Shown: in pieces, positions 1 through 13,394 of the stretch
Numbering within the stretch: position 1 is the stretch's first letter
Layout: every line of letters starts with the position of its first letter
DNA from: Acidobacteriota bacterium
GTDB taxonomy: Bacteria; Acidobacteriota; UBA6911; RPQK01; JADFOI01
Assembly: GCA_963663035.1 (NCBI GenBank)
Contig: OY760074.1
Coordinates: forward strand, 992,001-1,056,000
DNA length: 64,000 nt
Reading direction: 5' to 3'
Program-made: the position numbers and the translations under genes
Notes under the pieces: model-generated
Told to the model about the DNA's origin: nothing
The model's database searches: none
What the model saw: only the letters and a program-made list of their open reading frames with translations

Positions 1-1
1 C

Positions 2-3000
2 ATTGACCCGTTCGGAGAGACCCTTTTTGAACTGAGTCCGTTCGGAAAAAAGGGGAAGAAAATTCTTGCCTTGGCGGCTGATCCGCTGGATGCCTTCGTG
101 TGGGTGGCTACAAGAGATCAGGTGGCTCGTGTGAGCAGCGACGGGGAGATCCTGATGATCCAAGAGTCCATCGGCTCGAAGAAAAAGAAGGGGAGAAGTC
201 GGGATGTGGCCCTTTACGTCGACGTGATTTCTCCTCAAGTTATCTTCACAGCTCCACCGGGGGGGAGGCTGATGAGCAATAGTCAACCAGTGCTGATGTT
301 GAGCTTTAGGGATCTCGGCGGGGGAGTGGATCCTGCAACTTTGCGCTTTAAAGTGAACGGGGCAGAGTGGCCGAGCAGTTGCCTCTTTGCTGAGCAGGCA
401 GCCGCAACTTGCTTCCCTGATGTTCCCTTGCCGGAAGGGTTGATCGAGCTTTCGGCTTGGGTTGACGATTTCAATGGCAATCCCTCAGATCCGGCCCAAG
501 TACAGTTTGTCGTTGACACGATCCCTCCCCGAATCACCTTTGCCAGGCCTTTAGAGGGTGAGGTGCTCAACACCACTAGTCCGAGTTTACGGCTCGAGTA
601 CAGCGATATCGGCTCGGGTGTGGACAGCACGTCACTTGTGATCCAGGTCAACGGCAGTCCGCTGAAGGTCACCTGCGTCACGGAGGAGATGAGCGCTACC
701 TGTGATCCAGTCACACCCCTGCCAGTAGGACCCGACCACCTCACGGCTACTATCCAGGATCTAGCCGGAAACCTCTCGGCCTCGGCGGAGCTGGGCTTCA
801 CCATCCAATTGGGGGAAGCCAGGTTTCCAGTTTTGGATCCCATCGGAGACCAGACCGTGCCCTTGGGCAGCACGCTAACCTTTAACTTGACGGCCAATGA
901 TATAGAAGGCGATCCGCTGGCCTTTTCTGCTAGCCCAGTTCCATTGCCGGCGAACTCCAGCTTGAACGCCAGCTCAGGGGTGTTTACTTTCACTCCATTA
1001 TCCAATCAAGTGGGAGTCATTCCCCTGACTTTCAGCGTGAGTGATGGAGTTCTGAGCGATTCAGAAAACATCAACATCACCGTCCAGGGTTCCATTCCTG
1101 GCGGTGAGACAAGTTTTACCGGAAAGCTCCTCGATGCCAATGACTTCGAGCTGGGAGTAGAAACCCCGGTGGTTGGGGCCGTCATTTCTTTTCTGGGCAC
1201 GACACAATGGGCCCTTTCTGACTCTGAGGGGAATTTCACAGTGGATGATCTCCAGGGTGGGAGCCATATTCTGGATATTGATACCTCGACGGCTTATTTT
1301 GCTCCCGACGGTTCTGACTATGGAGGTTTTCGAGAGGAGGTTGAACTCATCTCAGGCGTTAACAATGTCGTAAGCCGCCCCTTCTTTCTCCCTCGAATTG
1401 CCGCCAGCAGTCTTACGCCGATTAATCCGAACTCGTTTACCAGAGTCACCAATCCTGATCTGGGAATCTCTTTGACAATTCCACCCAACACAGCCAAAGG
1501 AGAAGATGGCAACAACTTCACGGGTCAGCTTTCCATCTCATTGGTTCCCAGGGACCTTGCTCCAGCAGCTTTACCCGATTTCCTGGATCCAGGGCTGCTC
1601 ATCACCATCCAGCCGGTGGGTATCACCTTTGCGACTCCTGTTCCCATCACTTTTCCCAATATCGACAATCTTCCAGCAGGAAGCCAAGTGGACATCTGGT
1701 CCCTGGACGCCGATCTGGGTGTTTTTTCCATTGTCGGAACGGGTCTTGTCTCTGCGGATGCTACAGAGATTGAGACCATCTCCGGCGGGATCAGGGCCAC
1801 AGACTGGCATGCCATGATGCCGCCCCGGCCCAAACAGGACAACAGTGCCAACAACGCAGATAACCAGGATCCAGAGAAGTGTACGGAGTGTCCGACAGGG
1901 TCCAGGACAGCCGTCTCCTCAGGGAATCTGAGGGTTGAACAGGATCTGGTGAGCTACCGCTCTCTAGGTCAATCCCGAGCACTGCGGTTGGTCTACAATA
2001 GTCTGCATGCCGATCCTCAGCCCATCATTGGCTCAAAGACGACGATTCCATTGAGGGCCGCTGTGCCACTCTCGGTTTCAGCTCGTCTTAGCGTGGCCGG
2101 AGTCGATCAAGGTGTGAGCACCTTCATGAGCACACAAGGACTGAGTGAGGAGAGCGACGAAACGATCCGACAGGTGGTTTCCTACGAAGCCGCTGAGTTT
2201 CCCACGGGGCTCTATTCTTACCGGCTGCGATTGACCAGCCACTACTCCTCTACAGCCATTTCGGCCATTCAGACCGGCAATGTGCTGGTGAATAATCAGC
2301 GGGTGAGTCCTTTTGGTTCCGGTTGGACCCTGCAGGGTCTTGGGAAGCTCCATTTTCAGCGAGATGGGAGCATCGTTTTGACGGATGGCAATGGGTCTGC
2401 CAAGCTGTTCAGACGATCTTCCTCAGGCAGTCTGACTTTCCTCTCCCCTTCGGGAGATTTTTCTACCCTGGAGGGAAAGATCGATGGCAGCTTCACTCGA
2501 AGGCTCAAGGACGGAACTCAAATCGACTTCAATGTCGACGGCCTGCAGAGCTCGATTTTGGATCGAACCGGCACTAGAACCGTCTTCGCCTACGATGACA
2601 GTGAGCGGTTAATCTCAATCACCGATCCGGTGGGCTTGGTGACAAGCATTTCCTACACTGGAGGATTTCTGCGTTCCATGACGGATCCGGCAGGTCGCGT
2701 GACGCGATTTGAGCTCGACGCGGCGGGCAATCTTACCCGGATAGTGGCTCCGGACGGCACCCGCCGCCGCTTCACCTATGATCCACACCACCGCATGAGT
2801 ACGCACACTTCGAAAGGTGGATTTGTCACGACTTATAGCTATGGTTTCGCAGGCCGTAATGTCGCTGTCACACGTGCAGATGGCTCCACTCGAGGAATTG
2901 TCCCAAGCGAGGCTTTAGGCCTGGCGGATCTGTCCTCGGGAGTGGGGACTTCAGAGAATCCGGCTTCTGTGGTGCGCCCTGCAGACGTGGAAGCGCTTTG

Positions 3001-3121
3001 CATCCGGCTTCTGTGGTGCGCCAGTCACAGATGGAAATGGCAACGCGTCTCGCTTTACCACCGACCGGTTTGGTGGGGCCACCCGAACGATCGATGCCCT
3101 GGGGAGAACCACCCTGATTGA
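2..3121 (+). CDS. Large RHS/YD-repeat (teneurin-like) toxin carrier, N-terminal part; 5'-truncated by the window and frameshifted near 3000
   Basis: The frame is open from position 2 (IDPFGETLFELSPFG...). It has two Ig-like repeats (DTIPPRITF...D.AGN), a cadherin-like Ig domain, a carboxypeptidase-regulatory-like domain, then YD repeats (YDDSERLISITDPVG). The translation is out of frame after ~2998. Confidence 0.85.
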   Translation: MDPFGETLFELSPFGKKGKKILALAADPLDAFVWVATRDQVARVSSDGEILMIQESIGSKKKKGRSRDVALYVDVISPQVIFTAPPGGRLMSNSQPVLMLSFRDLGGGVDPATLRFKVNGAEWPSSCLFAEQAAATCFPDVPLPEGLIELSAWVDDFNGNPSDPAQVQFVVDTIPPRITFARPLEGEVLNTTSPSLRLEYSDIGSGVDSTSLVIQVNGSPLKVTCVTEEMSATCDPVTPLPVGPDHLTATIQDLAGNLSASAELGFTIQLGEARFPVLDPIGDQTVPLGSTLTFNLTANDIEGDPLAFSASPVPLPANSSLNASSGVFTFTPLSNQVGVIPLTFSVSDGVLSDSENINITVQGSIPGGETSFTGKLLDANDFELGVETPVVGAVISFLGTTQWALSDSEGNFTVDDLQGGSHILDIDTSTAYFAPDGSDYGGFREEVELISGVNNVVSRPFFLPRIAASSLTPINPNSFTRVTNPDLGISLTIPPNTAKGEDGNNFTGQLSISLVPRDLAPAALPDFLDPGLLITIQPVGITFATPVPITFPNIDNLPAGSQVDIWSLDADLGVFSIVGTGLVSADATEIETISGGIRATDWHAMMPPRPKQDNSANNADNQDPEKCTECPTGSRTAVSSGNLRVEQDLVSYRSLGQSRALRLVYNSLHADPQPIIGSKTTIPLRAAVPLSVSARLSVAGVDQGVSTFMSTQGLSEESDETIRQVVSYEAAEFPTGLYSYRLRLTSHYSSTAISAIQTGNVLVNNQRVSPFGSGWTLQGLGKLHFQRDGSIVLTDGNGSAKLFRRSSSGSLTFLSPSGDFSTLEGKIDGSFTRRLKDGTQIDFNVDGLQSSILDRTGTRTVFAYDDSERLISITDPVGLVTSISYTGGFLRSMTDPAGRVTRFELDAAGNLTRIVAPDGTRRRFTYDPHHRMSTHTSKGGFVTTYSYGFAGRNVAVTRADGSTRGIVPSEALGLADLSSGVGTSENPASVVRPADVEALCIRLLWCASHRWKWQRVSLYHRPVWWGHPNDRCPGENHPD
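2958..3022 (+). repeat. 21-bp direct repeat (ATCCGGCTTCTGTGGTGCGCC) at the RHS frameshift
   Basis: Identical copies at 2958-2978 and 3002-3022. Confidence 0.95.
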
Positions 3122-6100
3122 GCGAAATGGGGGCAACAAGGGGTCGCTTCAGGGGGACGCGACGTTTGCCGCTGGGCGAGTCGGTCAGGCGTTTCTCTTC
3201 AATCGGGTCGATGCTTTTGTGGAAATTCCTCACCACTCAAGTCTGGACGATTTTACAGAGGCCACGGTGGCCGCCTGGATAAATCTCAATTCTGTAGAGG
3301 GCCGTCAAGCTATTCTTTCCAAGGTTCCAGAGGGAAATTATTATTTGCTGGTCGACGGGGATCGGCTTAGCTTTGAAAACAATCTGATTAACTTTGGCGC
3401 GTTTAAGGGTTCCACGCAGCTGGCTTCCTCAACCTGGTATTTTGTGGCCGCCACCTGGGATGGCAGCGAGACTAGGCTCTATGTAAACGGGATACTGGAT
3501 GGCAGCGATCCTGTGGACTGGGTAGGTGCTCCGAACACAGATGCGGTGAAAATTGGACAACGAGGTCGAAATGACGATCTTTTCGGTGGACTCATCGACG
3601 AAGTTGAGATTTACAACCGGGCCCTCAGCGCTTCTGAAATCCAGGCCATCTTCGATGCGGGTAACTCGGGTAATCGGCCGGAGCCCTTGTCGGGTCTGAT
3701 CAGCCGCTGGCAAGGTGAGGGGAGTGCCTCTGATGTTAAAGGAGAGCAAGGGCTTCCCAGCCGAATAACCAGGGCCAACGGCGCTGTTTTCACAATGAGC
3801 TATGATCAGCGGGGCAATCTGCTGACCTCTACAGAAGAGGCCACCAACGCTACGACTACCTTCACTTACGAGCCTGTGTTCAATCAGGTCAGTTCGGTGA
3901 CAGACCCTGACGGGAACGCGACCGCCATCAACTATGACGCCAGTGGCAATCCCATTGAGATCATAGATGCTCTGGGAACCCGTACGGTCATGGCGTACGC
4001 TGATCCAACTTGTCCTGGCCAGCTGACCAGTGTCACGGCTGCTCAAGGATTACCGGAAGAAAACATCACAACCTTCGAGTATGACCCGGTCACATGCAAC
4101 CTCACTCAGACCACAGATCCGCTCTTGAACAGAACAGTCCTGGCCTACGATGCAGCCGGCAACGTCACTCAATCCAGTGACGCTGAAGGCCGGCTTACGC
4201 GTTTTCAGTACGATGTGCTGAATCGCCTCACTAAAGTCATCGATGCCACCAACTCCGCTCCTGACCCGGTTTGCGGGACGGCGAGCGTGACCTGCTACGA
4301 CTACGACGACCAGGGAAACCTCATTCAAGTGACCGACGCCCAGGGCAGCATGACAACCTTTGAATACGATACTGAGGACCGGTTGACGAAGACGACGGAC
4401 CCCTTGGGCAATTTCGAGACGTTTGACTATGACGACAACGGCAATCTTATCTCGACAACCGATCGCAGCAATCAGATGATCGACTTTGAGTATGATGTGG
4501 GTAACCAGCTGATCGAGAAAACCTTGCTGCCAGGGGCTCCAGGAGAAGCAGTGACAAGCTTCGGCTATGATCTGACTGGTAATCTCACCTCGGTCGCGGA
4601 TCCGGACAGCTTCCTGACCATGACCTACGACGACCTCAGTCGTCTAGACACTGTTTTCACTTCAGGCTCACCCAATCAGCTGGAGGTGTCGATCAGTTAC
4701 ACCTACGACAAGAACGGCAACCGCTTGACGATGACAGATCCGGAAAGAGTAACCAGTAGTGTTTATGACGAGCTGAACCGGCTGACCGACCTGACAAACC
4801 CCTCTTTAGACACGGTGTCCTTTGAATATGACAACTTGAGTCGTCGCACCCAACTGAGTATGCCCACTGGCGTCACGACTGTCTACAGCTATGACGATGC
4901 CAGTCAGCTGCTGAGTCTGGAGCATACGCTCGGAGCCTCGATGATCTCTAACTTCTCCTACACCTACGACAAGGTGGGGAATCGGAAGACTTTCGCCCAG
5001 GATCGTTCCGCGGTCAGTGTGGCTTCGCCTCTGAACTATCTCTACGATGATCTGAACCGTTTGATTGAAGGCACCCATCCTTTGCCTCTTCTTCCCCAGG
5101 AGATCTTCGACTACGATCCCGTAGGCAATCGTGAGCTGAGGGACGGGCAGTCTTTTACCTCCATCTTTGATGCAGCCAATCGTTTACTGGAGGATGAGGA
5201 CTTCTGCTACGACTACGACGACAACGGCAACTTAACCTCCAAGGAGGCCAAAGTGACGGGTGCTTGCGGCGCAGCCGGTCAACTCACAGAGTACGATTAT
5301 GATCCTGAAAACCAGCTCATTGAAGTCCGAGTCAATGGCACCCCGGTAGGAAGTTATCGCTACGACGGATTAGGTCGGAGGATCGAGAAGGACGCGAGTG
5401 GCGCGGTGACAAGGTACATCTATGACAACGAGGACCTTCTGCTGGAGTTTGACGGTGCCAACACTCTGATTGCTCGCTACACCCACGGGCCTGGAATCGA
5501 TGAGCCGTTGATCATGGAGCGAGATCTGGACACTAGCGGGACGTTTGAAGTTACTGAGCAATTCTTCTACCACGTGGATGGCCTTGGGAGTGTCACGGAG
5601 TTGACGGATTCTGCTGGGCTGGTCGCTCGAGCTTATGTGTACGATTCGTTTGGGCAGATTGCTCAGGAGGTGGGAACCTTAGCCAATCCCTTTACATTCA
5701 CGGGACGCGAAATTGATGAGGAGAGTGGCCTTTATTTCTACCGTGCCCGCTACTATGATCCGCGGACTGGAAGATTCACTAGCGAGGATCCTGTGGGTCT
5801 TGGAGGTGGCGACCCCAACTTCTACCAGTACGTACTGAATAACCCAATCAGCTTCGTAGATCCTACAGGGGAGGGTCCGAAGGGACTGGCAGCTTGTATC
5901 ATTGTTCAAGCTATCGGCGTGGGTCCGACGATAATAAATATAGTCAGCTTGGGATTTGAAGTAGGTGAAATAAATCAGGAAATCGAAGATATCAATAGAT
6001 GCATAGACGATGAGTTAGACAAGGGTTTCAGCAAAGCTGATTTTATAGAAATTGGACGATTGAGCACAAAGAAAAAGAAACTCGAAATGGAAAAACTTAG

Positions 6101-6194
6101 GAAACTTCTGGAAGGGGCCAAGGCCGAGGCCTACGGTAGGGCTCTTGAAATCCCACTGGCGCCTTTGTGCCTCTTTTTGATAGCAGCGTTTTGA
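3024..6194 (+). CDS. RHS/YD-repeat toxin, C-terminal part: inserted LamG domain, YD repeats, RHS core and 107-aa C-terminal toxin domain
   Basis: YD-like sequence resumes in this frame at 3024 (VTDGNGNASRFTTDRFG), upstream of the ORF-track start at 3219. RHS core motifs are present (FTGREIDEESGLYFYRARYYDPRTGRFTSEDP...NNPISFVDPTG). The divergent, AT-richer tip runs 5871-6194. Confidence 0.88.
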   Translation, partial: VTDGNGNASRFTTDRFGGATRTIDALGRTTLIERNGGNKGSLQGDATFAAGRVGQAFLFNRVDAFVEIPHHSSLDDFTEATVAAWINLNSVEGRQAILSKVPEGNYYLLVDGDRLSFENNLINFGAFKGSTQLASSTWYFVAATWDGSETRLYVNGILDGSDPVDWVGAPNTDAVKIGQRGRNDDLFGGLIDEVEIYNRALSASEIQAIFDAGNSGNRPEPLSGLISRWQGEGSASDVKGEQGLPSRITRANGAVFTMSYDQRGNLLTSTEEATNATTTFTYEPVFNQVSSVTDPDGNATAINYDASGNPIEIIDALGTRTVMAYADPTCPGQLTSVTAAQGLPEENITTFEYDPVTCNLTQTTDPLLNRTVLAYDAAGNVTQSSDAEGRLTRFQYDVLNRLTKVIDATNSAPDPVCGTASVTCYDYDDQGNLIQVTDAQGSMTTFEYDTEDRLTKTTDPLGNFETFDYDDNGNLISTTDRSNQMIDFEYDVGNQLIEKTLLPGAPGEAVTSFGYDLTGNLTSVADPDSFLTMTYDDLSRLDTVFTSGSPNQLEVSISYTYDKNGNRLTMTDPERVTSSVYDELNRLTDLTNPSLDTVSFEYDNLSRRTQLSMPTGVTTVYSYDDASQLLSLEHTLGASMISNFSYTYDKVGNRKTFAQDRSAVSVASPLNYLYDDLNRLIEGTHPLPLLPQEIFDYDPVGNRELRDGQSFTSIFDAANRLLEDEDFCYDYDDNGNLTSKEAKVTGACGAAGQLTEYDYDPENQLIEVRVNGTPVGSYRYDGLGRRIEKDASGAVTRYIYDNEDLLLEFDGANTLIARYTHGPGIDEPLIMERDLDTSGTFEVTEQFFYHVDGLGSVTELTDSAGLVARAYVYDSFGQIAQEVGTLANPFTFTGREIDEESGLYFYRARYYDPRTGRFTSEDPVGLGGGDPNFYQYVLNNPISFVDPTGEGPKGLAACIIVQAIGVGPTIINIVSLGFEVGEINQEIEDINRCIDDELDKGFSKADFIEIGRLSTKKKKLEMEKLRKLLEGAKAEAYGRALEIPLAPLCLFLIAAF

Positions 6195-6211
6195 GATAAC
6201 GGACGGGTAGA

Positions 6212-6601
6212 ATGCACTTCATCATGACGCACTTGGTGTTGATAGCGATGTGTTTCTGGATCAGTTCAGGTGTTGCGTTGTTTTGGTGGCTCTGTTTGAA
6301 TCAGCCAAAGCCGATACTGCGAAGATATCCAAGAACAATCTTGATCCAAATGAGCCTGCCATTCTTACGCAATCGTTGGAGGGACATTGACCCCAATGAC
6401 GTCGAACATTTAAACACCTTTAGAAAAAGGCTGTTCGTTCGTGTAGTGTTGCTATTCGTCATTCCCACCTTTCTCGTTTTCCTATGTGTACGTCTGAACA
6501 TTATTTACCTACACAACATATCGACTGAGGTGGACATGAGGTCCGAGGAGATCGATAGAAAGGTTGAGGAATTCTTAAGGGACAGGCCGGATGACGAATG
6601 A
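6212..6601 (+). CDS. Putative cognate immunity protein (two TM helices)
   Basis: It starts 17 nt after the toxin stop, is AT-rich, has two hydrophobic segments and shares the YPR...LP...D.D..D motif with the downstream paralogs. Confidence 0.75.
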   Translation: MHFIMTHLVLIAMCFWISSGVALFWWLCLNQPKPILRRYPRTILIQMSLPFLRNRWRDIDPNDVEHLNTFRKRLFVRVVLLFVIPTFLVFLCVRLNIIYLHNISTEVDMRSEEIDRKVEEFLRDRPDDE

Positions 6602-6606
6602 AGTAC

Positions 6607-6627
6607 GGGTAGACTGTCCCCACATTT
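6607..6627 (+). repeat. Cassette-boundary motif copy 1 (GGGTAGACTGTCCCCACATTT)
   Basis: It matches 8447-8467 at 18/21 positions and lies just after the stop of immunity gene 1. Confidence 0.7.
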
Positions 6628-6632
6628 CGCCC

Positions 6633-6728
6633 CAAGAATTAGCCCGTGAGGGAGGTGTAGGAACTGGAGTTAACGCCACCATAGGACTGGCTTGTGGGGC
6701 TGCGATAATCTTGGCGCTCCTCTTGTGA
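6633..6728 (+). pseudogene. Start-less remnant of an RHS toxin C-terminal tail (QELAREGGVGTGVNATIGLACGAAIILALLL*)
   Basis: It has a G-x10-C followed by a hydrophobic end, like the intact toxin tail (YGRALEIPLAPLCLFLIAAF*), and stops 20 nt before the next immunity gene. Confidence 0.55.
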
Positions 6729-6971
6729 ACCCAAAGGAGAGATAGGGAATGGGTATTAATGCTTTCACCCTGCCTTACTATGTACTTTTTCTAGCTATGA
6801 TGATGATTATCATCAAGATTTATAGGAAAATGCCGTCCAAAGAAATTATAAAAAAATATCCACGGTCAACAATAGCCAAGAGTATCTGTCTGCCCTTCTT
6901 TGAGTCCTGGAAGAAAGATGTTGAACCGGACCACATTGACGTAATTGAAAGGTATGCGAGATCAGGCCGCG

Positions 6972-8351
6972 GAGCTACCCTCAAAAGGTGTGTAAATAGC
7001 ACAGGCGGTGATTATCCTTCCGGGTGAAAATAAAAACCCGGGCGGAAGAGCCCGAAAGGAAGGAGTCACACCGCCATGAGCAAGAAGAACATTGATCACA
7101 GTGTGGAGTCAAGAGTCTGCTTTGAACAGCTGGAAGAGTGGGTGCGAGAGCAGATCCAGTTTTACGTACAGGAACTGCTGGAGGATGAAGTGACACAGCT
7201 GCTGGGACGAAGAAAGAATGAGCGTCGCCGAGAAGTGGACGCCTCCGGTGGCTATCGCAACGGCTACGGCAAGGAGCGGCGACTGACGATGAGTTGCGGA
7301 ACGATCAAGCTGCGGCGTCCCCGAGTGCGGGATCTGGAAGAGCGTTTTGAGAGCCGGGTCTTGCCGCTGTTTGCCAAGCGAACGCGAGAGGTACGAGACT
7401 TGATTCCAGAACTCTATTTACATGGTCTGGCCGAGGGGGATTTCGATCTGGCCTTGAGAGGGCTTTTAGGGGAAGAAGCGCCGCTGTCCCCCAGCACCGT
7501 AGCCCGGTTGAAACAGAAGTGGCAGGGAGAAATGGAGGCCTGGCAGAGCCGTCGGCTGGATGATCTGGAAGTCGTGTATTTGTGGGCGGACGGCGTGTAC
7601 ATCAAAGCAGGGCTGGAGAAGGAGAAGGCCGTGATTCTGGTAGTGATCGCCGCTTTAAGTGATGGCACTAAAGTGGTGGTGTCCGTCAGTAGTGGTTATC
7701 GAGAATCGACCCAGAGCTGGTCCGAAGTGCTGCGGGATCTCAAAGAGCGGGGGATGAACCCACCCCGTCTGGTGATCGCTGACGGGCATCTGGGGATCTG
7801 GGGAGCGTTGCGCAACGTGTTCCCAGAAGCCGACGAGCAGAGATGCTGGAATCATCGCATCGTCAACTTGCTGGCCAAGATCCCCAAGAGTCGGCACAAA
7901 GCGGCCTTGTTGATGTTGCGGCAGATCCCTTATGCAGAAACACGGCAGGAAGCCGAGCGAGTCAAAGGACGATTCCAACATTGGTGTAGCAAGAGAGGCC
8001 TGGAGGCAGCGGCTGATCTGATCGACCAGGACTGGGAGCGGATGGTGACGTTTTACAACTATCCCAAACAGCAGTGGCAACATCTGCGGACTACCAACCC
8101 AGTGGAGTCTCCCTTCTCTGCTCTGCGACTGCGAACCGATGCTGCTCGAAGGTTCAAGAAAGTGGCCAACGCACGGGCTGTCATCTGGAAGATGCTGCTG
8201 GTCGCTGAGAAGAGATTTCGCCGTTTGAAGGCTCCCCACTTGATGAAGGATGTCTACCAAGGAGCCCAATATGTCAATGGAGTTCCAGTCAACCCAGTCA
8301 CCCAGGAGAAAGCCGCCTGATGTCTATTTACACACTTATTGACGGAACCTC
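6972..8351 (+). mobile_element. IS256-family insertion sequence (~1380 bp)
   Basis: Imperfect terminal inverted repeats are GAGCTACCCTCAAAAGGTGTGTAAATAG and (rc) GAGGTTCCGTCAATAAGTGTGTAAATAG. The 9-bp target duplication CAGGCCGCG is at 6963-6971 and 8352-8360. Confidence 0.95.
7076..8320 (+). CDS. IS256-family (Mutator-like) DDE transposase
   Basis: Motifs YRNGY, PRVRD, YLWADG, IADG..G, QRCWNH, LRTTNPVES; 414 aa, intact. Confidence 0.95.
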   Translation: MSKKNIDHSVESRVCFEQLEEWVREQIQFYVQELLEDEVTQLLGRRKNERRREVDASGGYRNGYGKERRLTMSCGTIKLRRPRVRDLEERFESRVLPLFAKRTREVRDLIPELYLHGLAEGDFDLALRGLLGEEAPLSPSTVARLKQKWQGEMEAWQSRRLDDLEVVYLWADGVYIKAGLEKEKAVILVVIAALSDGTKVVVSVSSGYRESTQSWSEVLRDLKERGMNPPRLVIADGHLGIWGALRNVFPEADEQRCWNHRIVNLLAKIPKSRHKAALLMLRQIPYAETRQEAERVKGRFQHWCSKRGLEAAADLIDQDWERMVTFYNYPKQQWQHLRTTNPVESPFSALRLRTDAARRFKKVANARAVIWKMLLVAEKRFRRLKAPHLMKDVYQGAQYVNGVPVNPVTQEKAA

Positions 8352-8446
8352 CAGGCCGCGCTCTCATAGTTACTTTGCTTGTCTTTATTAGTATCTCCAG
8401 CATCATAAGATATCTACAGGTTGTGTACTTGTTGAGTGTTGTCGAA

Positions 8447-8467
8447 GGGTAGACTCTCCCTGCATTT
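8447..8467 (+). repeat. Cassette-boundary motif copy 2 (GGGTAGACTCTCCCTGCATTT)
   Basis: It matches copy 1 at 18/21 positions and contains the TAG stop of immunity paralog 2. Confidence 0.7.
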
Positions 8468-8517
8468 TCGGAGGTAGTGTTGCCAGTCTCGTCTTTGCCT
8501 TTTGCTTTGTTCTCTAA
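8467..8517 (+). pseudogene. Start-less remnant of an RHS toxin C-terminal tail (FGGSVASLVFAFCFVL*)
   Basis: It has G-x10-C plus a hydrophobic end, begins at the end of the motif and stops 12 nt before immunity paralog 3. Confidence 0.5.
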
Positions 8518-8529
8518 CTAAATTCAAGA

Positions 8530-8913
8530 ATGGATTGGCTAATGGCTGTTGTGCCGACACTTGTGTTTGTTCTTGTTTTCATTTGGTTGGTCCTGTCGGG
8601 GTTACACTTCTTGAAATGGAGGTCAAAGCACTCTCCGAAAAGCACTATGGCTAACTATCCAAGGCGCTCTATCTTCCAACTGATGCTATTTTTGCCGGTA
8701 AGTGGTTCGCCAACTATTGATTCCGATGACTACGATATCTTGACTGACTATAGAAGAAGAGTATGGATCCGTTATCTGGTCTTCGTTCTGATGCCGATTT
8801 TGATTATTGTTTTATGTGTGCGGATCCTGTCTCTTCGTATCGGCCAAACGGTAAACGAAATCCAAACGGATAGGCAGGAACTTGAACGTAGAATCGAAGA
8901 AAACACCCGTTAG
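8530..8913 (+). CDS. Orphan immunity paralog 3 (two TM helices)
   Basis: It aligns by eye with 6212-6601 (PK....YPR..I...LP...ID.DD...L..(Y/F)R.R...R....V.P....LCVR...E..R..EE). Confidence 0.8.
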   Translation: MDWLMAVVPTLVFVLVFIWLVLSGLHFLKWRSKHSPKSTMANYPRRSIFQLMLFLPVSGSPTIDSDDYDILTDYRRRVWIRYLVFVLMPILIIVLCVRILSLRIGQTVNEIQTDRQELERRIEENTR

Positions 8914-8930
8914 GAAAAATGAGAGATCTA

Positions 8931-8956
8931 GGTTGGTACTTCCCCCACTTTTCCCC
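8931..8956 (+). repeat. Degenerate cassette-boundary motif copy 3 (GGTTGGTACTTCCCCCACTTTTCCCC)
   Basis: Loose similarity to copy 1; it follows immunity paralog 3. Confidence 0.4.
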
Positions 8957-9020
8957 TTTTGGCGTCTAAGCTTGAGCAATTCTTGTTGCCTTTAACCCTC
9001 GTAAGATTTAGGATCGAGCC

Positions 9021-10694
9021 ATGAAACGAGCACTTACCTTAATGGCGCCCTTATGGGTAATTTCTGTGCTGATTCTATGGGGCTGCAGCGGACTGAGAGG
9101 GGATGAGGTCTTGTCCGAGGAGCAATTGGCCTGCGAAGCCCTGTCCGAGATGCGGAACTTAACCATTACCCTGGCTCAACTGGTGGAAGCCACCGAGGAG
9201 ACACCCGAGTACTGCTACGTGAAAGGAACCATCTCTCCTGGCATCGTCTATCATGTCCAGCTGCCCTTACCTGAGAACTGGAACGAGCGACTTCTCAACA
9301 TTGGAGACGGCGGCAAGGACGGAGATCTGGATTTTGCCGATTATCGCCTGGCCCAAGGCTATGCCGTGGCCAACAGCAACATGGGACACGACAACGGCTC
9401 CGAACCGGGAGCATCCTTTGGCTTCAACAACCGCCAGGCGGAAATCGATTTCGGCTACCGCGCGGTGCATCTCACGGCCAATGCTTCCAAGACTGTCGTG
9501 GACGCCTATTACGACAGGGATCCCGAGTATTCGTACTTTGAAGGCTGTTCCACAGGCGGCCGCGAGGCTCTTATGGAAGCTCAGAGGTTTCCCTACGATT
9601 TTGATGGAATCGTGGCAGGAGCTCCCGCTCTCTTTTATCAGAGGGCCAATGCCAACCACGTCTGGATGTTACAGAGAGTATTCCGCAACAACCTGGCCGG
9701 AAATCTGGCCTATGACAAGGACGGCGATGGCACACCTGAGAGCTTCACCAAGCTGAACCTTTTGAGCGACACCATGTTGGCCAAGTGTGATGGAGTGGAC
9801 GGAATCAGTGACGGCGTAATTGACGACCCGTTGGCCTGTGATTTCAAGCCGGAGGTTGATCTGGCTGACAAGATGTGCCCAAACAACGTCAATGGGGATG
9901 CTTGTTTTACCACCGAACAGATACAAACCATAAAGGATATCTACGGCGGAGCACACGACAGCAGAGGCGACCTGGTGTACAAGGGCAAACCCTTGGGCAC
10001 GGAGACGGGCTGGGCTTTCGCTCTTTTCCCTCACGCAGGCAACTCCATGACACCTGCCCGGGTGGGCACGCCGCAGCGTCCTGGCACTGCCGGCGACCAC
10101 CTCAACTACCTCTTCTATGAAAATGACCCAGGGACCACCATGCCGAAGTTCACGGACCTCTCCCAGGTCCCAAACAAGACGAGACAACCTCCTGAGTATG
10201 CGTGGTGGGAATTCAATGTCGATGACGTCACCAACGGCAAGGCGGATCTGATGATCTCGATCACCGAGGCCAAGGATCCTGATTTGAGCCGTTTTTTGCT
10301 CAAGCAAGACGGCAAGCTGATCATTTACCACGGGTGGAGGGACTCCCTGGCCAATCCCGAACCCACGCTGGACTATTACAAGGACGTCGTGGCCACGACC
10401 TTCAGCGGCGACCTCAACGCTGCTGTGGAGAAGACGCGGCTCTTTATGATTCCTGGAATGGGCCATTGTGCCGGTGGCCCGGGACCGAATACCTGGGAAA
10501 GGCTGGCACCACTGGTGGATTGGGTGGAAAACGGTAACCCACCTGATGCTCTGGTCGCCACCCATAGCACCGATGGAGTGGTAGACAACGAGCGGCCTAT
10601 TTGCCCCTACCCCCAACGGGCTGTTTTCACGGGTCCCGCTGGCGGGGAGAACGATTCTGCCAACTGGGTGGCAAGTAATTTTACCTGTCGGTGA
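9021..10694 (+). CDS. Tannase/feruloyl esterase family alpha/beta hydrolase, probable lipoprotein
   Basis: Nucleophile motif EGCSTGGRE, AQRFPYDFDGIVAGAP, IIYHGWRD, PGMGHCAGG; LWGC lipobox. Confidence 0.92.
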   Translation: MKRALTLMAPLWVISVLILWGCSGLRGDEVLSEEQLACEALSEMRNLTITLAQLVEATEETPEYCYVKGTISPGIVYHVQLPLPENWNERLLNIGDGGKDGDLDFADYRLAQGYAVANSNMGHDNGSEPGASFGFNNRQAEIDFGYRAVHLTANASKTVVDAYYDRDPEYSYFEGCSTGGREALMEAQRFPYDFDGIVAGAPALFYQRANANHVWMLQRVFRNNLAGNLAYDKDGDGTPESFTKLNLLSDTMLAKCDGVDGISDGVIDDPLACDFKPEVDLADKMCPNNVNGDACFTTEQIQTIKDIYGGAHDSRGDLVYKGKPLGTETGWAFALFPHAGNSMTPARVGTPQRPGTAGDHLNYLFYENDPGTTMPKFTDLSQVPNKTRQPPEYAWWEFNVDDVTNGKADLMISITEAKDPDLSRFLLKQDGKLIIYHGWRDSLANPEPTLDYYKDVVATTFSGDLNAAVEKTRLFMIPGMGHCAGGPGPNTWERLAPLVDWVENGNPPDALVATHSTDGVVDNERPICPYPQRAVFTGPAGGENDSANWVASNFTCR

Positions 10695-10782: not shown

Positions 10783-11697
10783 TTACCCTTTCCCTTTGAC
10801 TCTAGTGGCTTTACCTGGTGAGACAATTATTTCATCGATCAGAGCGTACTTGTTCTTGCGGTTTGCGTAAAAGGTCCAGAGATCCTCGCGTTCAACATCG
10901 TTGAGCACCGTCACAAGCGTTCTTCCTTGGGGGTCTTCGTCCAACCCACGGTCTATCTTTATGACGCCAACGTCGGTCAGCACCAATCGGGAATGAAGGT
11001 CCAGGGAATCATTCTCATCCTCCCATAAAACGAACTTGATTTCACTGTGTTGGGGAAGATGTCTCGAAAACCTCTGCTCGCATTCCTTCCTGAACCACTC
11101 ACCTTCTGCTTTTGCCCTCAAATGATATTCGAATCGAGACAAGGTTCTACCCTTTTCGGCACAAAGCAGGAAGTGGCCAAGTGGGCGAGTCCATTTCGCT
11201 CGCGAAGGGTCAAAGTAAGGATCGACCAAAATAACTTCCGTGCTGCTTTCGAGCAGCAGTTGACAGCATTCAGCAAGATCCTCTGCTGTTCTCTGAATCT
11301 GTCCGCCTCTACCGATCCTGATCAAAGGGTGCGTCTCCTCCACATCAGTTGGAGAGATGACATATTTCCTTTTAGTCTTACTCTCGTCGGCGATGATCGC
11401 TTGAAACGGCTTACGCAAATGCTCATCAAGTGCATTTTTCAGCCAGGCAACATCGAAGTTGAACGACCTTCCAGACTCCACAAGTTTCTGGCGCCTAAAT
11501 TGACGCAACCTCAGAGCGATTTTCTTCCTCTCGACATCTCCCAAATCTCTACAGGCTTTCAACACCTCGTCTTCCCATTTCTCTGGAAAGCGTGAGATGA
11601 GACGCCCGTGTTCAAAGCCAAACCGGTTAGTGATGTCTTTAAAGACTTCCCAACTACCCAATGCAGCGGGTTCGAGGGCATATTCACGAAAGATCAA
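10783..11697 (-). CDS. Hypothetical protein with C-terminal PLD-like (MIT_C-type) domain; partner of the ABC ATPase
   Basis: EVILVDPYF and LHSRLVLTDVGVIKIDRGLD resemble the MITD1 C-terminal PLD-like motifs. The TTG start overlaps the ATPase TGA. Confidence 0.65.
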   Translation of the reverse strand: MIFREYALEPAALGSWEVFKDITNRFGFEHGRLISRFPEKWEDEVLKACRDLGDVERKKIALRLRQFRRQKLVESGRSFNFDVAWLKNALDEHLRKPFQAIIADESKTKRKYVISPTDVEETHPLIRIGRGGQIQRTAEDLAECCQLLLESSTEVILVDPYFDPSRAKWTRPLGHFLLCAEKGRTLSRFEYHLRAKAEGEWFRKECEQRFSRHLPQHSEIKFVLWEDENDSLDLHSRLVLTDVGVIKIDRGLDEDPQGRTLVTVLNDVEREDLWTFYANRKNKYALIDEIIVSPGKATRVKGKG

Positions 11698-13394
11698 AAC
11701 AGCTCCTCCTCGCGCTCTTCAAAGAACCCACGCGGCCAGCGATCGATGAATTCGCCGGTCTTGTCGATCCTCAGCGGGGAAACATGGACCACCCCGTCAG
11801 CGGACTCCATAAAAATCACACTGACCTGATCGGGCGTGAGGGGTTGAACGTCCTTCGGTAGCTTATCCTCGCTGGTCTCGCGGATCCTACGGAGGAGCCT
11901 CAGCATGAGGTGTTCACTGTGAGTCTCCAATAAGAAGAGGTTATCGCCTGTCTGGATCTGAGCGATGAATAGGTCAGCCAGCTTTGATTGCAGTGCTGGG
12001 TGAATGTGCAATTCAGGCTGCTCGACCGTGACAATCTGGTCTTTGGATAATAAAGCTGCAATAACGACCGGGATCAACTGGGACGCACCCGTTCCCACGT
12101 CTCGTGGATTGAGGTCGCGGCCCGTCGTAGATTTTCTCAGCACCACGCGTGCCCGCTCGGGCATCTCGTGAATGCATTCCTCAATCTCAGGGGGATCTGT
12201 TACAGCCTCCGCGTCCAGCTTGGAGATTTGGGAAGACTCAAGCTCTCTGAAACGTCGGACGATGATTTTATAGCCCGTGTCTAGCCGATCTGCATCCTCT
12301 AACCATTGATTGATTTCAGCTTCTTTTTCTGGTGTTACTGTGAACAGTTCCTCCCACACACTGAGGCCAGAGTGTAGGCCAAATGCTGAAACGGGCTCGT
12401 CTTGCTCCAGAACCCTCGGAGGGCGAGCGCGGAGGGGGCCAAGGTACCGCAAAGACCGGAGAAGGTGTTCCACCATGGCTCCAGGCCGTAAGATGCATCG
12501 GCTCAAGATGTCATCGTACCCGTCCTTGAGCTGATAGCGGTCGTCACCATCCAGGTGTTCAGCGTCTCCTTTCTCGACCTCTTCTTCGCTGTCAATCTTT
12601 TTTTCACCGGCTGCTACGGCTTGTTCCCAGTCCGGAAGAGCACCCGCGCATCGTGTAAAAATATGGCCGGCACTCGGTGGGCCTGGAGGGTTGCCGGACC
12701 AGTGCCAGTGAGAGATGTCTTCAAGCATGAAATTCGAAAGCTCGTGAAATAGGTTGGGCGATTTCGAAGACCTCCCCTTACGGAAGATATGATGCTGGGT
12801 GTTGAAAACCGTGTCGAGGACATAGGGCTTCAGGTTCATATACCAACGTAGGAACTGGTCTTGGTCCACATCCTTGTACTGTTGGATGCGCCTAGAGGGA
12901 CCTACGTCGGAAAGCTTGGAGAAAAATTCTTCGTTCAACTCCACTCGGCAGGAGGCAAAATAGGGAATCGATAGAATCGGATCCCAGCAGACCGAAACTG
13001 AGACCGATGCGCGTTGCACCTTGGCCAAGCAGTCTAGACAGCGTTCTGTCAATCCGACGTGTTGAACTGTTCTGTGCTCAAAGGGAACATCACCAGACAG
13101 ACCAACCTTTTCAAGATCGATTTCCACAGTGACTGTAATGGGGAGTGAGAGATCGTAGTTGTGCACCATGTTCTGGAAGCCACCCAGATCGAGCGGCTCA
13201 TCGAAGATCGTCACTTGATGCGGATTCGGATTGTGGTTCACGAAGATTTCCCGTGCGTAGAGAAGAGCTTCCATTACGGTGCTCTTTCCGGCGCTGTTGG
13301 GACCGAACAGAAGCGTGATCGGTTTGAGCTCAATACGTACAGGGTCGCCGATCGCCTTGAAATTCTGGATGGTAAGAGCTCTCAGAGTTGCCAA
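11694..13394 (-). CDS. ABC-type ATPase (AAA_15/AAA_21-like) with DUF3696-like C-terminus
   Basis: IQNFKAI, Walker A GPNSAGKS, signature VGTGASQL, Walker B VTVEQPELHIHP, H-loop ETHSE, terminal DRWPRGFFEE. Confidence 0.88.
   Translation of the reverse strand: MATLRALTIQNFKAIGDPVRIELKPITLLFGPNSAGKSTVMEALLYAREIFVNHNPNPHQVTIFDEPLDLGGFQNMVHNYDLSLPITVTVEIDLEKVGLSGDVPFEHRTVQHVGLTERCLDCLAKVQRASVSVSVCWDPILSIPYFASCRVELNEEFFSKLSDVGPSRRIQQYKDVDQDQFLRWYMNLKPYVLDTVFNTQHHIFRKGRSSKSPNLFHELSNFMLEDISHWHWSGNPPGPPSAGHIFTRCAGALPDWEQAVAAGEKKIDSEEEVEKGDAEHLDGDDRYQLKDGYDDILSRCILRPGAMVEHLLRSLRYLGPLRARPPRVLEQDEPVSAFGLHSGLSVWEELFTVTPEKEAEINQWLEDADRLDTGYKIIVRRFRELESSQISKLDAEAVTDPPEIEECIHEMPERARVVLRKSTTGRDLNPRDVGTGASQLIPVVIAALLSKDQIVTVEQPELHIHPALQSKLADLFIAQIQTGDNLFLLETHSEHLMLRLLRRIRETSEDKLPKDVQPLTPDQVSVIFMESADGVVHVSPLRIDKTGEFIDRWPRGFFEEREEELF

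Follow-up and report, generated by a model that had tools for sequence, protein, structure and literature searches.

A REP-type repeat piece at every joint of a putative orphan immunity array behind an RHS toxin gene of an uncultured Acidobacteriota bacterium

Known comparators for stacked gene cassettes are integron attC arrays and the recombinase-associated acquired interbacterial defence islands of Bacteroidales. Orphan modules of the classical Rhs/CDI type retain a piece of the toxin core, permitting homologous re-activation. Such Rhs/CDI orphan toxin-immunity modules are attributed to C-terminal displacement (Koskiniemi et al. 2014, PMC3967940; Poole et al. 2011, PMC3150448). In the T6SS clusters of Vibrio cholerae, orphan immunity arrays have been explained by sequential displacement of effector-immunity modules, and upstream-anchored, homology-facilitated illegitimate recombination was proposed for them (Kirchberger et al. 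2017, PMC5361080). A separate literature treats the REP/REPIN repeats and their RAYT transposases (Bertels and Rainey 2011, PMC3116915).

We analyzed a 64,000-nt stretch of an Acidobacteriota genome (the window; positions 992001-1056000 of the contig, genome G000), in which an RHS toxin gene is followed by three paralogous membrane-protein genes, imm1, imm2, and imm3. Like the V. cholerae arrays, the locus has one live toxin and several immunity genes, as expected where a new module replaces the old toxin and the old immunity gene stays. Orphans there match live pairs in other strains, and here imm3 matches a pair in the congener G002. Unlike the V. cholerae arrays, the carrier is an RHS protein of an uncultured bacterium, 3' stubs of the toxins are kept, and a REP piece lies at every joint, a feature not described in the available text of that account. 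With the Rhs/CDI orphans the locus has in common that the RHS core is conserved, that every polymorphic tip has its immunity gene next to it, and that modules once displaced are stacked farther downstream. Classical orphans differ in their retained core; here none is kept, and with only 16 to about 31 codons left of the toxin end there is no way to revive the orphan toxins. As in integron arrays and the Bacteroidales islands, small genes of one orientation are each followed by a related short repeat, and immunity genes are stacked. Unlike in those systems, the window has no integrase or recombinase, and unlike attC sites the repeat is genome-wide rather than confined to the array, with joints that have neither a conserved fold nor a fixed crossover point. 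The repeat resembles REP/REPIN sequences, which are short, dispersed, extragenic palindromic units occurring as hairpin-forming inverted doublets, singlets, and tandem clusters, and the array's unit flanks a RAYT gene in genome G010. It departs from them in its low copy number (about 28 arms), its perfectly palindromic doublets, and a G000 RAYT gene flanked by a diverged variant. A literature search found no published description of REP at toxin/immunity module joints.

The RHS gene occupies the following positions of the window.

1..3121 (+): first reading frame of the RHS gene, with Ig-like domains and the first RHS repeats; the gene starts about 930 bases 5' of the window
2959..3023 (+): frame-change site, an apparent 44-nt insertion between 21-nt direct repeats (2959-2979 and 3003-3023)
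2919..5865 (+): second open frame, with a LamG-like domain, RHS repeats, and the core end
5866..6194 (+): CT1, the toxin tip now in place, of about 109 aa with two hydrophobic ends and no Pfam family

RHS/YD repeats are present in both frames (PF05593; E 1.3e-77 with 10 stretches in 3219-6194, E 6.1e-21 in 2-3121), and we read from the sequence a ..DPTGEG motif, which we take to be the RHS core end. At the protein level the first-frame product is 65% identical to the intact RHS protein of G002 over residues 176-1172 of the latter. Between 2980 and 3024 the match to that protein shifts from frame 2 to frame 3, and the second frame is open for 1091 aa. Identity to G002 across the 5' part and core, the putative upstream anchor, is 81%. 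A query with the RHS core matched 7 of the 15 genomes of the family. The tips beyond the conserved core differ among G000, G002, G003, G005, and G006; CT1 has weak similarity to the G002 tip CT3 (E 0.012).

The array reads CT1-imm1 / stub(CT2)-imm2 / stub(CT3)-imm3, with a start-less stub directly 5' of both imm2 and imm3 and a related motif at every joint.

6195..6211 (+): joint J0, from toxin stop to imm1 start; with the last toxin codons it marginally resembles the inner half of a REP arm
6212..6601 (+): imm1, encoding 129 aa with two predicted membrane helices; presumably the immunity gene cognate to CT1
6634..6728 (+): stub 1, about 31 start-less codons with a hydrophobic, Cys-containing tail; presumed from position and pattern to be the 3' end of a lost tip, CT2
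6749..6971 (+): 5' part of imm2, an orphan immunity gene whose intact homologues have 109-113 aa
8361..8452 (+): 3' part of imm2; its TAG stop (8450-8452) falls within motif 2
8467..8517 (+): stub 2, the final 16 codons of the CT3 toxin tip
8530..8913 (+): imm3, 127 aa, an orphan immunity gene whose orthologue in G002 is the cognate one there

The original prediction saw three paralogous membrane proteins that share a YPR motif, and this was borne out: an imm3 query retrieves imm1 from the genome (E 1.5e-12, 26% identity), and YPR is invariant across the alignment. Mutual identity among the three is only 19-26%. Elsewhere, imm1 and imm2 have close homologues (75-94% and 67-88% identity, respectively; P0001-P0005 and P0009-P0015). 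Profile scans of genomes with the imm1 and imm2 clades each gave zero loci, and the imm1 profile found one locus of 1083 bp (L023) in metagenomes. No Pfam family scored above cut-off for the toxin tips or the immunity proteins. We infer that the three genes have an immunity function; imm1 starts 17 nt past the live toxin end, and G002 inherits CT3 and imm3 together. The modules have a GC content of 38-46% against 54.4% genome-wide. Our promoter and terminator scan of 5800-9100 gave results at or below shuffle expectation.

The predicted origin of the immunity genes in related toxin loci also found support. Positions 8467-8920 of the window (454 bp) are 91.2% identical to G002:C73 7845-8298, the 3' end of an intact 2630-aa RHS ORF plus its immunity gene. 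This homology begins with the final base of motif 2, in agreement with the claim of a breakpoint at the motif, and ends at 8920. By this sequence match stub 2 is a real toxin remnant. The stubs were said to end 12-20 nt before their immunity genes, and the gaps are indeed 20 nt (6728 to 6749) and 12 nt (8517 to 8530). That both are toxin tails held for stub 2; stub 1 may be one by analogy. A word-based search with stub 1 for an intact CT2 gave no match at E <= 1, BLASTP against CT3 gave none, and across these searches and HMMER it had no significant homologue and no demonstrable toxin homologue. One HMMER candidate, a 799-aa protein with seven internal stretches (E 3.8e-5), was rejected as an apparent low-complexity match rather than a toxin tail. 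Comparing the RHS core or tip with the array (blastn and tblastx) gave best E-values of just 0.09-0.15, in line with the claim that no core was retained.

Orphans of this kind are also found in G002, where the RHS orthologue carries CT3-imm3, then a 36-codon CTX stub, then immX. The RHS orthologue of G005 carries CTX-immX. Since G002 holds the CTX stub and immX behind CT3-imm3, and since tips differ among the congeners, stub-plus-immunity orphans recur at the RHS locus. Behind imm3 in G002 comes a unique 40-nt linker rather than a REP. The linker is not REP-like (752 of 2000 shuffles reached an equal score), and it has no second copy in G002, G000, G003, or G005. Thus imm3 did not always travel with a REP.

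The motif at the joints belongs to a dispersed REP/REPIN-type repeat, of which it is a single arm (a singlet), and is not a private recombination site. Its three occurrences in the array are as follows.

6597..6633 (+): REP singlet 1, which holds motif 1 and overlaps the imm1 stop codon
8444..8470 (+): REP singlet 2, a shorter, decayed arm piece that holds motif 2
8931..8958 (+): REP-like remnant 3 (motif 3), of which the outer end, 8943-8956, alone is recognizable

Motifs 1 (6607-6627) and 2 (8447-8467) are identical at 18 of 21 positions, reproducing the relatedness first noticed, and none of 100 shuffled windows yielded two matches. The third copy is degenerate, as had been said: only the 14 nt at 8943-8956 align to the repeat consensus, with 1 of 2000 shuffles scoring as well. 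With an nhmmer profile built from 24 arms, REP1 was matched over profile positions 3-36 (E 2.5e-6), continuing to CGCCCC, and REP2 spans about 12-36 at just 4.9 bits. Smith-Waterman alignment to the full doublet was equaled by 0 of 2000 shuffles for either singlet. REP1 is intact, REP2 has three to four changes, and REP3 can barely be recognized.

In the 3.59-Mb genome the motif has 30 matches compared with one for the reversed control. The genome holds about 28 REP arms, including 12 perfect palindromic doublets of about 78 bp, whose arms co-vary, plus singlets, spread over 0.15-3.42 Mb. The usual place of the repeat is just past stop codons, and it has stops in all three frames itself. The two other genomic singlets both lie 10-12 nt past the stop of a long same-strand ORF. 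All 12 doublets and the other singlets adjoin unrelated genes and are mostly intergenic. A scattered REP/REPIN arm of this kind is the outcome that the original prediction had named as refuting it. Nor is the motif the semi-palindromic site it was taken for, as it has only 3-4 bp of self-complement and the joint RNAs fold no better than shuffles (four joints, z -0.36 to +1.69, no conserved fold). Among 41 genomes including G000 the repeat is present in six (five of the 40 relatives searched), and tandem same-orientation arms occur in G002 (C53 and C332). Both REP1 and REP2 have a rarer GTAGA variant seen in one of the 12 doublets of this genome, and one could descend from the other.

Each of the three joints in this genome has a REP piece despite there being so few arms in the genome, a frequency far above chance. 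REP at all three is not predicted by the displacement model itself, an observation that counts against displacement alone. The likeness of J0 to a REP arm was matched by 24 of 2000 shuffles, and J0 is conserved in L023. This locus, the sole imm1 homologue with DNA at hand, has no REP directly behind the imm1 homologue. Both L023 and the homologue-less stub 1 speak against a displacement reading. The other rearranged flank, upstream of a PHP gene at 903 kb, has no REP arm. J1 and J2 differ in their outer REP limits by about 4-6 nt and in their inner limits by about 10 nt. At J2 the only sequence in common with the toxin is TTC, and at the left joints 8-11 nt of microhomology are possible, the imm2 value being read from protein sequence alone. 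REP2 intrudes on imm2 with its left edge and hence is not simply an untouched native flank, and the final five codons found in imm2 homologues are absent. With REP extents that differ, TTC shared at J2, and a shortened imm2, the joints look illegitimate rather than site-specific.

An insertion sequence and its alleles also bear on the history of the locus.

6972..8351 (+): IS256-family insertion sequence, 1380 bp, with a Transposase_mut ORF at 7076-8320; it interrupts imm2

The element has a 9-bp target duplication (6963-6971 and 8352-8360). Four public runs were compared over window positions 5000-9600. Outside the IS, contigs of X19, X22, and X23 match the window exactly in the parts of the array that they cover. 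The IS-free joint, and hence the IS-free allele, is present in X19 and X22, and X1 has the IS plus one identical 151-nt piece (6517-6667). No other cassette variant was seen among the four. We excluded inversion between inverted IS copies as the source of the locus rearrangement because the 9-bp duplication of the imm2 IS is intact and an IS-free allele exists.

The absence of a visible recombinase from the window was confirmed, with no match to PF00589 or PF00239 within 992001-1056000. Elsewhere in the genome these families have eight and two matches, respectively. Of the linked enzymes that might have been expected, the closest tyrosine recombinase match is about 96 kb away, and a Y1/RAYT gene does exist but 1.33 Mb from the array. 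In G010:C304, a 225-aa Y1 (RAYT) gene has a REP arm on either side (NF047646, E 1.8e-18; its 66.8 bits fall below the 80-bit cut-off), and a second, truncated RAYT copy is found in G010:C293, so that the arm is on both sides at two G010 loci. The G000 RAYT is 50% identical to that of G010 and next to the same neighboring gene. The orthologous RAYT genes of G000 and G004 are flanked by a diverged REP variant and not by the array's arm. A dedicated site-directed process analogous to integron or Xer systems, as originally proposed, is not supported, given the dispersal of the motif, the varying REP limits, the bare TTC shared at J2, the REP-free orphan joint in G002, the lack of a recombinase in the window, and the distance to the RAYT gene.

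On balance, the array is probably a product of sequential C-terminal displacement, a process already known for toxin/immunity modules, with each downstream end sealed by an illegitimate joint at a REP singlet or close to one. The toxin tip and immunity module of the RHS locus would have been swapped out at least twice, each swap retaining the prior immunity gene and just the last 16 to about 31 codons of the prior toxin. Incoming DNA from a relative would pair upstream with the conserved RHS core, and its downstream end would be joined illegitimately, through microhomology of a few bases, within the 3' end of the toxin tip already in place. Recombinants that still hold the old immunity gene would then be favored by selection. 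The REP pieces may mark the downstream edge of each incoming module or may have provoked the joint or a deletion there, and they would have decayed with age from the intact REP1 to REP3. The order of these events, the homology-anchored illegitimate joining, and the arrival of REP together with a module are what we infer.

The same joints could be read as the work of the repeats themselves. If REPs were portable homology, same-orientation copies behind an incoming immunity gene and in or beside the resident toxin 3' end would recombine, and ordinary or short-homology recombination would insert a [stub-immunity-REP] unit or delete the interval, leaving one REP per joint. We consider this fairly unlikely. 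It fits the same-orientation pieces at all three joints, the GTAGA variant of REP1 and REP2, and the tandem arms of G002, but the intact G002 CT3 has no REP where stub 2 begins, with TTC alone in common, and about 35 nt is the most homology that the arms could provide. REPs would have had to enter toxin tails on two separate occasions, and REP1 and REP2 are unlike in extent and decay, which would not be expected of products of a single event. Alternatively, a Y1 transposase of the RAYT type, supplied in trans, might cut a REP end and join it to single-stranded toxin-tail DNA, stacking cassettes or trimming displaced toxins. Consistent with this, the stub 2 breakpoint coincides with the outer tip of an arm, every joint has a REP piece, arms flank the RAYT genes at the two G010 loci, and the related RAYT of G000 sits beside the same neighboring gene. 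We nevertheless judge it unlikely, given the shifting limits of J1 and J2, the diverged repeats around the G000 and G004 RAYT genes, the 1.33 Mb between RAYT and array, the orphan joint without REP in G002, and the other singlets and all 12 doublets at unrelated genes. We know of no precedent for gene capture by RAYTs, and a literature search for it found none.

A REP- or RAYT-directed stacking process is unlikely in general. Its broadest form, in which REP singlets are portable joints and a RAYT-type enzyme or REP-REP recombination repeatedly joins the outer end of a REP behind one immunity gene to a neighboring toxin 3' end, we likewise hold to be unlikely. If true, portable REP joints would build and reshuffle [toxin stub-immunity-REP] units as a REP-based counterpart of the integron, and REP/RAYT systems would take part in the acquisition of interbacterial defence. 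If a single [toxin end-immunity-motif] unit had been tandemly duplicated in place and the copies had then diverged, the shared layout of the units and their paralogous immunity genes would be accounted for, but this scenario is scarcely credible and effectively refuted by paralogues of such low mutual identity next to stub 2-imm3 DNA 91% identical to another species' live module. The separate close homologues of imm1 and imm2 elsewhere also oppose duplication, as does a motif that matches the genome-wide repeat better than the flanks match each other.

Arrays of orphan immunity genes preserve a record of earlier toxin types and can shield a strain from neighbors still bearing the old toxins. 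This locus extends the orphan-immunity picture to the RHS system of an uncultured lineage, and the comparison with a congener shows one displacement step directly, in that one species has the toxin whole and another has just a 16-codon stub. The REP repeat piece at every module joint of this genome was unexpected. If the pattern does not recur, this is an ordinary displacement array whose repeats merely happened to lie behind genes. If it recurs in other genomes, REPs would be preferred breakpoints or portable homology in toxin/immunity module turnover, and a repeat class of debated function would be given a concrete role.

An array of three presumed immunity genes follows the RHS gene in the source genome (G000; 3.59 Mb, single contig), of which the window covers G000:C1:992001-1056000.

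Features of the RHS gene and its array (window positions)
entering from upstream, end 6194: RHS gene, from ORFs and domain search
5866-6194: CT1, toxin tip, about 109 codons after the core end, hydrophobic at both ends
6212-6601: imm1
6607-6627: motif 1 (joint J1), downstream of imm1
ending 6728: stub 1, a start-less open stretch, presumed toxin end
starting 6749: imm2, interrupted by an insertion sequence
6972-8351: IS256-family element, 1380 bp, inside imm2, with a 9-bp target duplication
8447-8467: motif 2 (joint J2)
ending 8517: stub 2, toxin end
8530-8913: imm3
after imm3: motif 3 (joint J3), degenerate

CT1 matched no family in a Pfam search. With the frame rejoined across the insertion by coordinates, imm2 resumes at 8361 and stops at a TAG (8450-8452) within motif 2. 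The stubs stop 20 nt and 12 nt before the next start codon, the live toxin 17 nt. The modules have a GC content of 38-46% compared to 54.4% for both the genome and the RHS body. As originally predicted, the three encoded proteins are paralogous (imm3 matches imm1 with an E of 1.5e-12 and 26% identity) and share a YPR motif, invariant in an alignment with identities of 19-24%. Motifs 1 and 2 have 18 of 21 positions in common; two such matches arose in no shuffle of the window out of 100. The RHS core was also correctly described as absent from the array (best E 0.09-0.15).

Judged by sequence, the motif is an arm of a REP/REPIN-type repeat, as it occurs in dispersed doublets and singlets and flanks a Y1 transposase gene in a related genome, G010. 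A degenerate version of the motif matched the source genome 30 times, the reversed control once. Twenty-four of these matches pair up, inverted and about 49 nt apart, into 12 perfect palindromes of about 78 bp, located between 0.15 and 3.16 Mb. The 12 doublet sites run from G000:C1 150787 to 3160527, one of them (1061576-1061653) about 5.6 kb past the window end. The two arms of a doublet always carry the same variant bases, and the palindromes at 283850 and 3160458 run 7-9 nt on into copy-specific flanks, which suggests each doublet was made or corrected by one arm being copied onto the other.

An nhmmer profile built from the 24 doublet arms gave 28 genome matches at E <= 1e-3. Apart from the 24 arms themselves, these were motif 1, matched with an E of 2.5e-6 over profile positions 3-36, one short palindromic form, and singlets at 229903 and 3419249. 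We also aligned each joint to the full doublet and scored it against 2000 shuffles. No shuffle was as good for J1 or for J2, the latter reaching only 4.9 bits against the nhmmer profile. One was as good for J3, where only the outer 14 nt align, and 24 were for J0 (toxin stop to imm1 start), a marginal result. Long, unrelated ORFs on the same strand stop 10 and 12 nt ahead of the singlets at 229903 and 3419249. Read from the arm alignment, the arm holds TGA, TGA, and TAG, one per frame, so any gene joined to it terminates within 20 nt. All four G000 singlets (229903, 3419249, window 6597, and window 8444) abut or overlap a same-strand ORF stop. At G000:C1:2483181-2483255, four 19-nt units in tandem, each equal to the arm's outer half, immediately precede a full doublet.

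The repeat is present in six of 41 related genomes, G000 included, as doublets, short palindromes, singlets, and tandem arms. The congener G002 has 25 matches, G010 has 10, G029 has eight, and G026 and G004 have two each. On G010:C304 a Y1 transposase gene (225 aa) is bracketed by two arms whose outer ends face away from it; the gene matches the NCBIfam REP-associated tyrosine transposase (RAYT) model with an E of 1.8e-18, below the model cut-off. A second, truncated copy with the same arms is on G010:C293. The original prediction had called for a search for a linked Y1/RAYT gene; G000 encodes a homologue of the G010 gene, 50% identical, beside the same neighbor gene and 1.33 Mb from the array. 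The repeats flanking the G000 and G004 homologues are a diverged variant, and a second G000 Y1 gene is flanked by an unrelated REP family. At G000:C1:2323222-2326542 (L010), the G000 RAYT gene follows a Mg-chelatase/ComM-like gene, and a second copy of the last ~45 nt of that gene stands on the other side of the RAYT gene, as though the RAYT unit had inserted in the 3' end of its neighbor.

A profile of the immunity family matched only two of 76 genomes of the order, G000 and G002. On G002:C73, an RHS frame runs for 2630 codons without interruption and is open at the 5' end of the contig. The last 16 residues of its tip are nearly those of stub 2, and an imm3 orthologue comes next. Window 8467-8920 corresponds to G002:C73 7845-8298 with 91.2% identity by blastn, bearing out the prediction that stub 2 is a real toxin end. 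The homology starts at the last base of motif 2, with only TTC common to motif and toxin, and stops 7 nt past the imm3 stop, just before motif 3. Between G000 and G002, identity is 81% in the 5' part of the RHS gene (window 1-1810) and in a core stretch (5359-5654); the two genes are therefore orthologous with different tips. An RHS core query matched seven of 15 genomes of the family.

Stub 1 fits the same displacement scheme by its position and its hydrophobic, Cys-containing end; homology searches with it found no intact CT2, the corresponding tip. CT1 and CT3, the tip matching stub 2, are weakly alike (E 0.012). On a metagenome contig of 1083 bp (L023, 1-971), an imm1 homologue with 77% identity stands alone, with about three codons of toxin end upstream and nothing more of the toxin. 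A serine recombinase (resolvase) gene precedes it by about 140 nt and a convergent gene follows, making it an orphan immunity gene whose surroundings may be mobile. At J0, window 6186-6214 (the last toxin codons and the spacer before imm1) is similar, as far as GGGTAG, to the inner half of the REP arm, with 24 of 2000 shuffles as good, and the stretch is kept in L023 (566-596). A true resemblance would make the stretch an old component of the CT1-imm1 module.

Chance cannot account for a REP piece at all three joints within 2.4 kb when the genome has about 28 arms per 3.59 Mb. The piece at J1 (REP1) begins in the inner part of the arm, reaches the CGCCCC tail, and is identical to a G002 copy over 29 nt. 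REP2, at J2, is shorter than REP1 on both sides, by about 10 nt at its start and 4-6 nt at its end, its left edge replacing the last five codons present in all seven intact imm2 homologues; judged from protein sequence only, pairing of the lost codons with the initial 12 nt of the motif would be possible. REP1 and REP2 share a GTAGA variant found in only one of the 12 G000 doublets. REP1 is intact, REP2 has three to four changes, and REP3 is nearly gone, a gradient that matches the expected order of module arrival.

The motif had been proposed as a dedicated recombination site. We do not read it so because copies of the repeat lie across the genome, mostly with no relation to toxin loci, its limits differ between joints, REP2 cuts into imm2, and J2 shares only TTC. 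In addition, the joints fold no better than shuffles, the equivalent orphan joint in G002 is formed by a 40-nt linker that is unique and lacks REP similarity, and no gene in the window has PF00589 or PF00239, consistent with the original remark that no recombinase is visible there. The reading we favor instead is that each incoming module ends in, or is joined at, a REP singlet behind its own immunity gene, and the downstream joint would be an illegitimate event guided by microhomology. Such joining follows a model put forward for immunity arrays in Vibrio, homology-facilitated illegitimate recombination (PMC5361080). Recombination between REP copies would give the same picture and is unlikely; joining catalyzed by a RAYT, which would give it as well, we consider less likely still. 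No link of REPs to orphan immunity joints was found in the literature searched, where one paper with both 'rhs' and 'REP' handled the topics separately.

The locus may be decaying given a frame change in the RHS gene, the insertion in imm2, and the loss of ancestral downstream genes. The shift of the RHS frame falls between 2980 and 3024, where 44 nt appear to have been inserted (window 2959-3023), with a 21-nt direct repeat at the bounds. Either a genuine inactivating mutation or an error of assembly could explain the insertion. The IS256-family element has 21 full copies in G000 (98.7-100% identity), and imm2 without it is found in public runs X19 and X22, with 6962 joined to 8352 by a 9-bp overlap. 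The IS contig has a depth of 50-1400 (X1, X19, X22, and X23), the locus a depth of about 1-14 in those three runs that contain it. Synteny with congeners stops right after imm3 (window 8920-9020). The PHP gene behind the array in G002, G003, and G005 is about 95 kb away in G000 on the other strand (G000:C1:902801-903337), adjoining different genes than in the congeners. Further on, window 10783-13394 (minus strand) encodes a 566-aa AAA_15/AAA_21/DUF3696 ATPase and a 304-aa protein of no family with a 4-nt overlap, a pair that looks like a phage-defense or abortive-infection type module.

Tips differ among the congeners. In G005, the tip CTX is followed by immX (62 aa), a His-rich gene, and the PHP gene. 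In G002, CT3-imm3 comes first, followed by the 40-nt linker, a CTX remnant (its last ~36 codons, 77.6% identical to G005), and then immX and the His-rich and PHP genes as in G005. G003 has a third tip type and no immX. Between the His-rich and PHP genes, G002 and G005 also have a related REP variant that contains a GGGACGTCCC palindrome (L027 9166-9200 and L036 1655-1685), with none at the corresponding place in G000. The differing tips and the remnant in these downstream regions show that orphans made of a stub and an immunity gene are a repeated result of tip replacement at the RHS locus, in keeping with the known pattern of C-terminal, or sequential, displacement.
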